Below, piece by piece: positions 53,407-57,852 of a stretch of DNA of 64,000 bases (the first letter of the stretch is position 1; each line of letters begins with the position of its first letter). Origin of the DNA: Candidatus Zixiibacteriota bacterium (GTDB lineage Bacteria; Electryoneota; B3-LCP); contig QZKQ01000071.1 of NCBI GenBank assembly GCA_003599535.1, forward strand, positions 4,454-68,453. The letters run 5' to 3'. The notes under the pieces were generated by a model. That model had not been told where the DNA came from. It worked only from the letters and a program-made list of their open reading frames with translations, and made no database searches. The translations under genes were made by a program, and so were the position numbers.

Positions 53407-54558
53407 CTATTTCAGTTGCAACCCCAGCACCAGGCCGTACGTCTCCTGTTTGTCCAGAGGATTGTCATGTGCGGCACTCAGCTGGGCGTAGTCGAAGCGG
53501 TACCAGAAGTCCAGGCCGGGAGTAGAAAAGTCCGCTCCCAGGGAGAAACCCTGCGAGCTGGGGTTCCGGTCTCCGAGGATGTCATAGTAGGTCCCCGAGC
53601 GGACCGCCGCTCGCAGGAGCAGATCGGGGGTAGCCCGCAGCTTCCCCCAGGCTTCCATCCCCACGTGCCGGATGATGCCGTCCTTTTCGTTCTGGGGATC
53701 ATCGTCGCTCCAGGCGGTAAACAGCGCCTGGTAGAACGGCCTCGGGCTCCGGTCCTCGCGCAGATCCACCAGTTCCTTGTCAAATTCGGCGTTCACCACC
53801 CAGCCCATGATGAAGGGTTCGGCTTCCAGGTTGGCCCCGGCCAGGCCGGCTAACGCCGCGAACACGTCGCAGGAGAGGCCCAGGCGAAGATTCTGGGGCA
53901 GCGGTTTCTCCGGCCCTATTCCGTAGTCCAGGGAGGGACCAATATTGGTCAGGGTGGCGCCCAGCCCCAGGCCCTGCATCCAGCCCGGCCGGTAGAGAGC
54001 GCCCAGGTCCGCGGCCCATCCCTGGCTGGTTTTGTTTCCTGCAGTGCTCTGGGGGGACAGGTGGCTGCCGAGGTATTTGAAGGCCAGGCCCACCCCCAAA
54101 TCCGGGTGGACGCGGGCGCCGCCGGCGACCGCCGCGGCCAGCTCATAGCTGTGAAAGGTGCCAGCAGGATTGTTGTTCTCGTTCCGGCTTTCGGTCGTGC
54201 CGTAACTGGTGTAGATGAAATGTCCGCCCAACGTCGCACCCCAGGCCGGTACGGGGTAGACGGCCGCGGCGTAGCGGTGGTACAGGTCGGGCAGGTTAAA
54301 CGACGGCAGCAGGTCGGTATTGGCGTAATAGCCTTCGATCCGCGTCTGGAATCCCAGCGCGCCGGGGTTCCACCAGACGGCGGCGGGGTTGTCCCATCGC
54401 GCCACTCCGGTTTCGCCCATGCCCGCCGAGACCGCATCAGGGACCAGCTTCAGGAAGATCGCCCCCGCTTCGCTGGGGCCGTCCGCCCGGGCGGTGCCCG
54501 CCAGCGCGCCGGCCAGCAGCATAACCCCCAACCCTCGCCGTACCATCTCCACCTCCAT
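53407..54558 (-). CDS. PorV/PorQ family T9SS outer-membrane protein
   Basis: FLKLVPDA..GMGE, WWNPGALG, DLGALY, NIGP, LPQNLRLG. Confidence 0.88.
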   Translation of the reverse strand: MEVEMVRRGLGVMLLAGALAGTARADGPSEAGAIFLKLVPDAVSAGMGETGVARWDNPAAVWWNPGALGFQTRIEGYYANTDLLPSFNLPDLYHRYAAAVYPVPAWGATLGGHFIYTSYGTTESRNENNNPAGTFHSYELAAAVAGGARVHPDLGVGLAFKYLGSHLSPQSTAGNKTSQGWAADLGALYRPGWMQGLGLGATLTNIGPSLDYGIGPEKPLPQNLRLGLSCDVFAALAGLAGANLEAEPFIMGWVVNAEFDKELVDLREDRSPRPFYQALFTAWSDDDPQNEKDGIIRHVGMEAWGKLRATPDLLLRAAVRSGTYYDILGDRNPSSQGFSLGADFSTPGLDFWYRFDYAQLSAAHDNPLDKQETYGLVLGLQLK

Positions 54559-55181: not shown

Positions 55182-55808
55182 CTATCCTACTCGCTTCTGG
55201 GACGACTTCTGATCGGCGGCTTCGCGCGCCTCGATGAATTCCGCCAGGTGATCGCGCAGGGCGGTGCGGCCGCGGTGCAGGGCCGCCTTGACCGCGGGCA
55301 CGGTGGTGTTCATGGTCTGGGCGATTTCCTGCAGGGACAGGCCTTCGATATCTTTCAGGACGAAGGGAACGCGCCAGGAATCGGGCAGTTGGGCCATGGC
55401 GCGTTCCAGCGCGTCCTTGAATTCCGTATCGAGCAACAGTTCCAGGGGGTCGCGGTCCAGGGATTTCAGCATCCGGGCGTAGCGGGAGGTCTCCTCGTCG
55501 TCCCCCTCCTCTTCCATGGGCACCAGGCGCCCTTTGCGCTGGCGCAGCATCATCAGGGCGGCGTTGGTGGCGATGCGGTAGATCCAGGTGCCCAGCGCGG
55601 AGTCGAGGCGGAAGGTGTCCAGTTTTTCGAAGACCTTGAGGAAGGTCTCCTGCAGGACGCATTCCGCCCTCTCCGGATTGCCCGTCAGCTTCAAGGCCAG
55701 GTTGTAAACCAGATCCTGGTGCCGCAGCACGATCTCCGTGCGGGCGCGCACGTCGCCGTCCAGCGCGCGCTGCACCATTTCCTTTTCCGGCAGGGGTTGC
55801 AGGGTCAT
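55182..55808 (-). CDS. ECF RNA polymerase sigma factor
   Basis: AECVLQETFL, TWIYRIATNAALM, LSLQEIA...VPAVKAALHRGR. Confidence 0.92.
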   Translation of the reverse strand: MTLQPLPEKEMVQRALDGDVRARTEIVLRHQDLVYNLALKLTGNPERAECVLQETFLKVFEKLDTFRLDSALGTWIYRIATNAALMMLRQRKGRLVPMEEEGDDEETSRYARMLKSLDRDPLELLLDTEFKDALERAMAQLPDSWRVPFVLKDIEGLSLQEIAQTMNTTVPAVKAALHRGRTALRDHLAEFIEAREAADQKSSQKRVG

Positions 55809-55836: not shown

Positions 55837-56178
55837 TTACACTTTCTGTATGGGGGCCAGGTGGGGCTTCAGGCCCTGTTCCAGCATGGGGCGGGGCAGC
55901 GCGCCGATCCACTGGCCCACCGGCTTGCCGTTCTTGAACAGCAGCAGGGTGGGGATGCCGGTGATGCCGAAGCGGGCGGCCACGGCCGGATTTTCGTCCA
56001 CGTTCACCTTGCCCACGGTCAACTGGCCGGCGTAATCCTGGGCCAGGCCGGACAGCACCGGGGCGATGATGCGGCAGGGGGCGCACCAGGGCGCCCAGAA
56101 ATCCACCAGCACGGGCGTGGCGCTCTGCGTGATCTGTTCGTCAAAAGTGGCGTCGGTCAGGGTGATTTCGTGTTCCAT
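55837..56178 (-). CDS. trxA: Thioredoxin
   Basis: VLVDFWAPWCAPC, GIPTLLLFKNG. Confidence 0.95.
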   Translation of the reverse strand: MEHEITLTDATFDEQITQSATPVLVDFWAPWCAPCRIIAPVLSGLAQDYAGQLTVGKVNVDENPAVAARFGITGIPTLLLFKNGKPVGQWIGALPRPMLEQGLKPHLAPIQKV

Positions 56179-56202: not shown

Positions 56203-56406
56203 TTACGGGGTTGGCGGTCCGGCCGGCGGTTCCGGCGTACCGGTGGTCTGTTCGGTGCGCGGAGTCTGGGCCCGATCCTCGGGCCCGCAGGCGCCCGACA
56301 TTCACGTCGGCACGCCCAGCCGGGGCAACACCCAGCGGGACAGGGTGAACCAGGCGACGAATATCAGGATGATCAGAATGGCATCCATACCGTTTCGCTT
56401 TCTCAT
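56203..56406 (-). CDS. Candidate small membrane selenoprotein (UxxxC); absent from the ORF track
   Basis: MRKRNGMDAILIILIFVAWFTLSRWVLPRLGVPT-TGA(56302-56304)-MSGACGPED...TP-TAA; AAGGA RBS; SECIS-like hairpin; alternative start at 56388. Confidence 0.7.
56268..56286 (-). promoter_or_regulatory. Candidate bacterial SECIS element
   Basis: GGGCCCGA-GGA-TCGGGCCC; G-first loop 23 nt after the UGA. Confidence 0.55.
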
Positions 56407-56686
56407 AAGTATCCTTCGGTTCAACTCCGGATGGTGCGCTCCGGGTCCCGCCGGGGGCCGCCCCGACCTCCACGGCATTTCATGGAATTAGATGCAGGAA
56501 GGGCGCGGAGGATGCGCGGGGGATCCGGGTATCAGCAGAGCGTCGGCATAATACTTGACTCATGCCCCTTCAGTGCTTATACTCTAAAAGCGATTTCTGC
56601 TTTGGATCATGCAACTGGATGATCAGCGGAATGGAGTGACTTCTGATATTGTCATACGATGAATATGCCAGGAAAGGTGTTGTTAG

Positions 56687-56946: not shown

Positions 56947-57852
56947 CTATTTCTGCGTCACCGGCGTCCCGGTGGAAAATTCCTTCAATTCCGCGGAGAT
57001 GGCCCCGATCAGCACCTTGGACTGCATCTGCACCGGGAAGCGGTATTCGTCGTCGGAAAACCAGATGAAGATGCGCCCCTTCTGCTTGAAGATGCCCGCC
57101 GATTCCAGCACCGGCTCCACCTTGTAAGCCCAGAATTCGCCCGCCGGCACCTTGACCTTCTCCCGCTCCAGCACGTCCACCCGCAGCGGGTAGGTCTTGT
57201 GGATGTCGTGCACCTCGACGTGGTAGGACTTCCCCACCTCGATTTCCGGCAGCAGACGGAAGTAATACAGCGAGGAGATGGCGTCCTGGACGTAGAGGGG
57301 GATGTCGCTGGTATCCTGGGGTACCCCTTCGTCAAAGGTGTAGGCCTTGCCCAGCCGCTGATCGTAGTCCACCACCTTGACGTCGTGGTACTTGCCTTCG
57401 TTCAGGCGCTTTTCGAAGTACCAGGTGAACATGCCCCGGGTGTCCATGTAGGAATGCACCTGGTCGTCCACCTTGAACACGCGGCTGAAGGTCTTGGACG
57501 ACCGGGCCCAGGTGTGGATGTGGTAGCAGGGCGCCCCGCGGTAGGTTTCGAGGTCGGGCAGGATTTCGATGCCCGCTTCCCCGGCGGTGATGACCCCGTA
57601 GTTGACGTCGAAGAGGAACCGTTCGCCCAGGCCGAAGCGTCCGTTGTCCAGATGCCGGACAATGAACCCGGTGTTGTCAATGATGAATTCCGGCTCCGGG
57701 GCGGGATTCACGGGCAGGGCCGTCCCCAGGAACAGGACGAGCGGCAGGAGCGCCAGCGGCCATCGCCGTCGCGCCGCACCCGGCCGGGAAGAAGGGAAAC
57801 TGCCGTGATTGATCCGCCGCAGCGGCCGAAACAAGCGGGAAATATGCCTCAT
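56947..57852 (-). CDS. DUF3108 domain protein
   Basis: GERFLFDV.YG.I.AG, FKVDD, D..S.LYYFR, VKVPAGEF, IWFSDD; start uncertain. Confidence 0.78.
   Translation of the reverse strand: MRHISRLFRPLRRINHGSFPSSRPGAARRRWPLALLPLVLFLGTALPVNPAPEPEFIIDNTGFIVRHLDNGRFGLGERFLFDVNYGVITAGEAGIEILPDLETYRGAPCYHIHTWARSSKTFSRVFKVDDQVHSYMDTRGMFTWYFEKRLNEGKYHDVKVVDYDQRLGKAYTFDEGVPQDTSDIPLYVQDAISSLYYFRLLPEIEVGKSYHVEVHDIHKTYPLRVDVLEREKVKVPAGEFWAYKVEPVLESAGIFKQKGRIFIWFSDDEYRFPVQMQSKVLIGAISAELKEFSTGTPVTQK

Follow-up and report, generated by a model that had tools for sequence, protein, structure and literature searches.

Thioredoxin-like selenoproteins with a UxxC motif, as tabulated in a May 2026 review (PMC13188914, Table 1), combine an in-frame UGA codon, a stem-loop after the UGA, homologues with cysteine (Cys) in place of selenocysteine (Sec, U), a nearby resolving Cys and a linkage to thioredoxin. 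The same combination is seen in a small minus-strand gene ahead of trxA in the DNA described here, a stretch of 64,000 nucleotides (nt; hereafter the window) from a Candidatus Zixiibacteriota bacterium (assembly GCA_003599535.1, contig QZKQ01000071.1), and we regard it as very probably a real Sec-encoding gene of a conserved family. Unlike the thioredoxin-like UxxC families, the small protein has no thioredoxin fold or known domain, spaces Sec and Cys as U-x4-C and consists of about 45-70 residues with one helix. The nearest motif in print is that of TsoA (LULAXC, NF045695), which shares with the small protein a short Sec-to-Cys spacing, given as U-x3-C in the table of PMC13188914. Compared through its NCBIfam model alone, TsoA differs in that its model spans 144 positions and that the motif here is T-U-(M/L)-S-x-x-C, that is U-x4-C; NF045695 gave no match in 21 family members (expect value, E, up to 1) nor anywhere in the genome (E up to 10). 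The MerT-like putative mercuric transport selenoprotein (PF02411) appears in the same table (PMC13188914) as membrane-embedded with Sec near Cys or Ser. The PF02411 model found no match in the 21 members at E up to 1. MerT, moreover, has several helices, unlike the single-helix small protein. Eukaryotic SELENOK and SELENOS are single-pass proteins with an N-terminal helix and a disordered Sec-bearing tail, and the selenenylsulfide of SELENOS is reducible by thioredoxin; the comparison is one of layout. They differ in that their Sec lies at the far C-terminus and their Sec insertion sequence (SECIS) in the 3′ untranslated region, whereas here the proposed Sec abuts the helix and the hairpin lies inside the open reading frame (ORF).

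Read through its TGA the frame is MRKRNGMDAILIILIFVAWFTLSRWVLPRLGVPT-TGA-MSGACGPEDR...PTP-TAA, with residue 40 as its sole Cys and four residues between this Cys and the proposed Sec. The first-pass annotation, made from the letters of the window, had described a small membrane selenoprotein hidden from the ORF track, and its particulars are exact in the sequence: an AAGGA ribosome-binding site, a minus-strand frame of 67 amino acids with readthrough ending 24 nt before trxA, a UGA at residue 35 four residues ahead of the only Cys, and a perfect 8-bp hairpin with a GGA loop 23 nt past the TGA, at 56286-56268. The plain ORF list indeed overlooks the gene, which is broken there into ORFs of 58 and 32 amino acids. 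Upstream of the ATG the frame stays open for 24 further codons to an ATG at 56478 (window 56420-56478, minus), and the longer 58-residue ORF starting there was rejected as the gene because the upstream region in relatives holds stops or unrelated sequence.

Homologues within the phylum were collected by searching the genomes at the protein level, in six frames and without halting at stops of any kind, so that the identity of the stop was not presupposed. A match spanning exactly one TGA was obtained in 20 of 60 relatives' genomes, and with the alignment as query the gene was found in 28 of the 79 genomes of the phylum, with one TGA each. The codon at the Sec position is TGA in all 28 homologues, and TAA or TAG, which the annotation had named as a sign against its reading, occurs in none. 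Conservation continues past this codon, again contrary to what the annotation would have expected of a false call: position +1 is Met or Leu in 26 and Ala in 2, position +2 is Ser in 22 of 28, drawn from two unrelated codon families (TCN in 20, AGC in 2), and position +5 is Cys in 26 of 28, encoded by TGC in 13 and TGT in 13. Trp19, Pro28, Gly31 and residue 35 are invariant columns of the in-phylum alignment. The synonymous variation at Ser+2 and Cys+5 points to protein-level selection past the “stop”.

Natural Cys forms were found in the protein databases. A profile search of 5.8 billion proteins gave 24 hits, of which 15 are full-length Cys forms reading ...LP+xG(V/I)xT-C-MSGAC... and the remaining 9 are fragments that end exactly at the T preceding the TGA (...GV(S/P/Q)T). 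When 1.84 billion representatives were searched exhaustively with a profile, 1826 proteins were returned at E ≤0.001 and 145 at E ≤1e-10, with P..G..[TS]-C-x4-C present in 127 of the best 150; Cys is also aligned to the UGA in 9 of the 80 loci from named genomes that are described below. Both forms anticipated by the annotation, Cys or TGA at the position with a conserved Cys downstream, were thus recovered, and Cys+5 is kept. Among the best 150 representatives we also observed Trp at the TGA position in about 13 (P0083, P0112, P0113, P0127, P0128 and others) and Arg, Ser or Gly in a few others; the Trp is probably a TGA translated by gene callers using a table with TGA as Trp.

These data bear on the simplest alternative, that the TGA is an ordinary stop which ends a membrane peptide of 28-34 residues, while the downstream conservation and the hairpin form an RNA element, for example one serving the translation or stability of trxA. 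Gene callers do stop at this codon, as the 9 truncated database hits show, and since Sec decoding is generally inefficient the truncated peptide is probably made as well. Yet the Cys homologues continue straight past the position into C-M-S-G-A-C, TAA and TAG are absent from the 28 homologues, and the two codon families at Ser+2 with the even TGC/TGT split at Cys+5 indicate that the protein, not the RNA, is under selection.

Species-representative genomes were further scanned with a degenerate DNA pattern (Trp19...Pro28...Gly31...TGH-ATG-TCN...TGY), which by construction cannot detect TAA or TAG and has no bearing on that question. At least 119 stretches matched, 80 loci of which were used for all cross-phylum counts; 71 of these carry TGA and 9 TGC or TGT. 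Matches occur in Geobacter, Geomonas, Citrifermentans bremense R1, Desulfuromonas relatives, Syntrophobacter, Desulfomonile and Thermodesulfatator autotrophicus as well as in Planctomycetota, Acidobacteriota, Verrucomicrobiota, Armatimonadota, Anaerolineales, KSB1 and others, so that the gene is found in at least ten differently labelled lineages. In the Geobacter-type order that contains C. bremense, 107 of the 121 genomes sampled have a match, and among the matches listed for those 107 genomes each holds at least one TGA (counted anywhere within the match). Judged by these sequence matches the family is large and spread over many bacterial phyla. The recurrence of TGA, Ser, Cys and hairpin in 27 further genomes of the phylum and in 71 loci from other phyla is more than chance would give.

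The hairpin, which lies directly 3′ of the Cys40 codon, has the geometry of a bacterial SECIS (bSECIS). The bSECIS model in section 5 of PMC13188914 comprises a loop of 3-9 nt on a stem of 4-16 bp, a G within the first two loop positions, a UGA-to-loop distance of 16-37 nt and a minimum free energy of at most -7.5 kcal/mol, and the window hairpin agrees with it on all four counts (3-nt loop on an 8-bp stem, G first, loop start 23 nt past the TGA, -15.5 kcal/mol when folded alone). The surrounding 91 nt fold with a z-score of -3.58 relative to shuffles, and an Rfam search gave two chance-level hits alone (E 0.41 and 1.5). With the TGA as the anchor of an alignment of 21 in-phylum sequences, 72.6% of cells in the stem columns are paired, compared with 54.4% in shuffles, and double-sided changes amount to 34 cells compared with 16.8 ± 3.2, a value reached by none of 500 shuffles. 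When the partner is slid by 1-3 columns pairing falls to 21-42%, and one stem position mixes GC, CG and UA pairs (6, 5 and 5). Kinship among the sequences can inflate the comparison with shuffles, and the slid controls and mixed pair types are the stronger argument; the alignment thus supports covariation of the hairpin.

Across phyla, a simple rule asking for at least 5 bp and a loop start at 20-30 nt, counted from the codon's first base, detected a hairpin in 62 of the 71 TGA forms but in only 1 of the 9 Cys forms, compared with 14.45 of 71 in composition-matched shuffles. The loop begins with G or GG in 51 of the 62 TGA-form hairpins and in none of the Cys forms. Overall folding energy was tried as a discriminator and dropped, as it gave no separation (-14.4 for Sec and -14.0 kcal/mol for Cys forms); the two are told apart only by hairpin position and loop type. 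Conservation of the residues E-D-R after Cys40 is confined to this phylum's TGA forms, in which GAG-GAU-CG makes up the loop and closing pairs, and Cys forms vary freely there, which is the pattern expected of an RNA constraint overlying a disordered tail. As to an RNA element acting on trxA, the hairpin stands 62 nt ahead of the TAA and about 90 nt ahead of trxA, as such an element might; it is, however, kept in loci without a downstream trxA, and its near absence from Cys forms fits a recoding signal and not a trxA regulator. With the coding evidence above, this leaves the ordinary-stop explanation very improbable.

The genome holding the window (G000; 3.77 Mb in 140 contigs, 93.75% complete) was searched for the Sec machinery, a lack of selA, selB or selC being another sign that the annotation had named against its reading. 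selA, selB, selD and tRNA-Sec are all present, the selD with an in-frame TGA of its own at the usual ...ACAG-U-ASKLG... site. A pair of selB genes over the curated cut-off is also present in six relatives from the same family, as well as in three genomes from other families of the phylum, and contamination seems a poorer explanation of the duplicated machinery than a trait of the lineage. SelB exceeds the cut-off in 26 of the 28 in-phylum carrier genomes, the two exceptions being fragmented assemblies. Co-occurrence with SelB was discarded as a test, since SelB passes the cut-off in 68 of the phylum's 79 genomes, including families without the gene.

The machinery also bears on a second alternative, in which readthrough of the UGA inserts a standard amino acid, either by near-cognate suppression with Trp or Cys or through a local change of the code. 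The roughly 13 representatives with Trp at the position would fit it. TGA nevertheless terminates 7 of the 24 long non-overlapping ORFs of the window, which indicates that it is still an ordinary stop and not reassigned genome-wide; the Sec machinery is complete, and SelB accompanies the gene in nearly all carriers; hairpin position and loop fit the bSECIS model; and the residue that replaces it is Cys, giving the classic Sec/Cys pair. We find this explanation scarcely credible, even less so than an ordinary stop. With a conserved UGA, conservation on its flanks, a Sec/Cys pair, a SECIS-like hairpin and the Sec machinery, a Sec codon at residue 35 is backed by every bioinformatic line of evidence in use for selenoproteins. 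The features of the locus and of the Sec machinery are collected in the table.

Features of the small selenoprotein gene, its operon and the Sec machinery (positions in the window, or in the named contig of the genome)
Feature	Location	Strand	Remarks
ECF-sigma-type promoter-like motif	56488..56515	minus	GCATCC 56515-56510, spacer, CATCTAA 56494-56488
AAGGA ribosome-binding-like site	56412..56416	minus	read from sequence; 5 nt upstream of ATG 56406-56404
Small selenoprotein gene (candidate)	56203..56406	minus	67 codons if TGA is read as Sec
Alternative start ATG (Met7)	56388-56386	minus	where most homologues from other phyla start
Single predicted transmembrane helix, residues 4-29	56320..56397	minus	AlphaFold2; holds invariant Trp19 and Pro28
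In-frame TGA, proposed Sec codon, residue 35	56302..56304	minus	TGA in 28/28 in-phylum homologues; Cys (TGC/TGT) in natural homologues
Cys40 codon, proposed partner of Sec in U-x4-C	56287..56289	minus	Cys in 26/28 in-phylum; invariant in 128 Cys forms
SECIS-like hairpin GGGCCCGA-GGA-TCGGGCCC	56268..56286	minus	8-bp stem; GGA apical loop 56278-56276
TAA stop of full-length product	56203..56205	minus	24 nt ahead of trxA ATG (56178)
trxA (thioredoxin, WCAPC active site)	55837..56178	minus	TIGR01068 119.1 bits, cut-off 96.8; PF00085
ECF-type sigma-70 family sigma factor	55182..55808	minus	TIGR02937 99.3 bits, cut-off 42.9; Sigma70_r2 (PF04542), r4_2 (PF08281)
Small soluble zinc-finger (zf-HC2, RsrA-like) anti-sigma, 83 aa	54924..55175	minus	borderline: PF13490 22.0 bits, just under cut-off 22.2
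selB, two over curated cut-off	C31 14036-15889; C79 2665-4557		
selA, two	C12 21512-22879; C2 74575-75933		
tRNA-Sec, two different genes	C49 23173-23269; C95 11610-11703		anticodon tca

We then compared the family with what has been catalogued. None of the 21 members reaches any cut-off of Pfam or NCBIfam, including the selenoprotein-specific NCBIfam models (best E at chance level, ≥0.005), and a profile search of the PDB gave no relative at E <0.1; the nearest ESM Atlas cluster of a Cys form is a “hypothetical protein” with no Pfam family. Table 1 of PMC13188914 lists 119 families and subfamilies of prokaryotic selenoproteins, and within its rows U-x4-C occurs in none and no name suggests a single-helix micro-protein. 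A 2025 deep-learning survey (deep-Sep) gives, in its accessible text, 13 selenoproteins already known and none that is new for Geobacter sulfurreducens, a species that may or may not carry the small gene. Text searches of the literature returned no CMSGAC and no relevant UxxxxC or variants, although supplementary tables (BSepDB, deep-Sep Table S2) could list the family; within the searchable text no such family is described, and a prior description is possible. On this footing the family is new, although its kind, the bacterial selenoproteins, is known; it is notable for being small, membrane-located and broadly distributed and for being missed by standard pipelines. The gene falls into two blind spots at once, as a UGA is routinely mistaken for a stop and micro-proteins are routinely overlooked for their shortness. 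If confirmed it would be a membrane-anchored addition to the bacterial selenoproteome, a cheap marker of Sec use and a compact natural SECIS. In a metal-reducing order that has been well studied, moreover, most genomes carry it (107 of 121), and cultivable carriers such as Citrifermentans bremense and Thermodesulfatator autotrophicus make the role of a membrane-surface Sec open to genetics.

The product was modelled with AlphaFold2 on an alignment of 36 rows (mean predicted local distance difference test, pLDDT, 67.5). Residues 4-29 are predicted as a helix, with a pLDDT of 94 over residues 11-20, and no structure follows; the invariant Gly31 and the proposed Sec lie just past it, the latter six residues after the helix end, so that the model agrees with the placement of the Sec just beyond a transmembrane helix in the first-pass annotation. 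Pro, Ala, Ser and charged residues abound in the tail after the Sec. A lipoprotein signal with the Cys or Sec as lipobox cysteine was rejected, as by the general lipobox rules the two Arg that separate the Cys from the hydrophobic core and a Thr at -1 speak against it. A homodimer prediction of a Cys form obtained no support.

In the window the small gene heads an operon with trxA, an extracytoplasmic function (ECF) sigma factor and a small anti-sigma factor, and this order is found in 8 of 8 related loci of the family, while trxA alone is next in 5 loci of another family. In the window's family, 9 of 9 loci share a motif G[AC]ATCC...TGCATCTAA, which can be aligned some 80 nt upstream of the start codon. 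It seems to resemble ECF promoters of the GGAAC...TCTAA kind and is likely the autoregulated ECF-sigma promoter of the four-gene operon. An upstream promoter guessed from the window, GGGACC-N18-GTT, is not conserved in relatives and was set aside in favour of G[AC]ATCC...TGCATCTAA. The conserved promoter-like motif ahead of the operon suggests that its genes would be induced jointly by the sigma factor. The SigR-RsrA-thioredoxin thiol-stress system of actinobacteria is built alike, with an ECF sigma, a small soluble zinc-finger anti-sigma and a thioredoxin behind an ECF-type promoter. The differences are that the anti-sigma of the window, although TIGR03988 (the RsrA equivalog) is its best NCBIfam match, scores 37.2 bits, below the cut-off of 62.5, and so falls outside that equivalog, and that the host belongs to a candidate phylum of the Fibrobacterota-Chlorobiota-Bacteroidota (FCB) group. 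We know of no membrane selenoprotein at the operon head in the actinobacterial SigR-RsrA system.

For the other phyla we clustered the neighbours within 2.5 kb of the 80 loci. Thioredoxin is the commonest (21 of 80), followed by ArsR-type regulators (12 of 80), FmdB zinc ribbons (9 of 80), ECF sigma or anti-sigma factors (8 of 80) and YgaP-like membrane domains (7 of 80), and genes for NikR, resistance-nodulation-division (RND) efflux and histidine kinases are also among the neighbours. In Planctomycetota loci a zf-HC2 protein is encoded ahead of the gene. Four Acidobacteriota-type loci have the gene flanked by thioredoxin on one side and, directly upstream, by a class-V aminotransferase gene (a Pfam hit for L121), presumably of the cysteine-desulfurase type. 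In three Cys-form loci of deltaproteobacterial or Polyangia-labelled genomes (L104, L123, L146), a cytoplasmic-type thioredoxin stands on one side of the gene and a member of a single look-alike gene cluster on the other; the downstream gene of L104 is a DsbD_TM-thioredoxin fusion by Pfam, with look-alikes in L123 and L146. The arrangement of these three has the look of an entire transmembrane reducing pathway in which the micro-protein takes the middle place.

From the motif and these neighbours, a thioredoxin-coupled redox role appears quite possible, if somewhat short of an even chance. A true selenoprotein could instead bind or traffic a soft metal, a metalloid or sulfur/selenium at the membrane. 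ArsR, FmdB, YgaP-like, NikR, RND efflux and histidine kinase neighbours and the aminotransferase directly upstream in the four similar loci would suit such a function, as would the mercury-transport membrane selenoproteins in Table 1 of PMC13188914. Thioredoxin is, however, still the single commonest neighbour, and in the lineage of the window the partners are a thioredoxin and a redox-type anti-sigma. Nor is C-x4-C, to our knowledge, a typical metal-binding spacing. A metal-handling function in place of redox seems to us unlikely, albeit with a real chance; the two roles overlap and are not mutually exclusive.

Under the redox reading, the locus would work as follows. SelB with Sec-tRNA would recognise the hairpin on the translating mRNA and selenocysteine would be inserted at the UGA, as in the established bacterial pathway, and failed recoding would release a peptide of 34 residues. 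The product would be a selenoprotein of about 61-67 residues with one membrane helix, then T-U-(M/L)-S-x-x-C, and last a charged, disordered tail some 26 residues long. Sec35 and Cys40 could then alternate at the membrane surface between selenol/thiol and selenenylsulfide, to be re-reduced by thioredoxin, and the sigma factor would switch on the selenoprotein, the thioredoxin and itself together. The protein may thus be a membrane-anchored redox-active (or soft-metal-binding) element in a thiol/metal stress response. A broader picture, which we offer tentatively and think rather less likely than the redox role itself, is that of an unrecognised multi-phylum family, maybe among the smallest selenoproteins, forming a membrane-interface Sec-x4-Cys switch at the head of thiol-stress operons. 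It could act as an electron relay between cytoplasmic thioredoxin and membrane or periplasmic partners, as suggested by some genomes in which the gene stands between those for a thioredoxin and for a membrane electron carrier of the DsbD type, or as a membrane sensor feeding the anti-sigma. The near-universal presence of the gene in Geobacter-type genomes would then imply, if the reading is true, that selenoproteome counts systematically miss micro-proteins.

Several points weigh against this account. The case for selenium incorporation and expression is built on sequence comparison. Under the simple rule 9 of the 71 TGA forms have no hairpin, and as the hairpin lies inside coding sequence part of its conservation could be at the protein level; the covariation counts argue against a purely protein-level conservation, without excluding it. 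The start codon may be Met1, which has the AAGGA, or Met7, the commonest start in the family. With regard to function, which is read from the neighbourhood only, no trxA lies in the flanks of about 1.5 kb of 14 of the 27 in-phylum loci examined, and 59 of the 80 cross-phylum loci have no thioredoxin within 2.5 kb. Topology is predicted in both senses: the Lys/Arg-rich N-terminal extension in the lineage of the window predicts the C-terminus outside, and the short N-termini of most other members predict it inside, with a median of 2 residues ahead of the hydrophobic core and a mean of 0.7 Lys/Arg, compared with 1.7 Lys/Arg between helix and Sec. In Planctomycetota some of the neighbouring thioredoxins have an N-terminal hydrophobic anchor.

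Beyond the operon itself, a DUF3108 protein is encoded upstream (56947-57852, minus) and a PorV-like outer-membrane protein of type IX secretion downstream (53407-54558, minus), flanking genes that are consistent with an organism of the FCB group.

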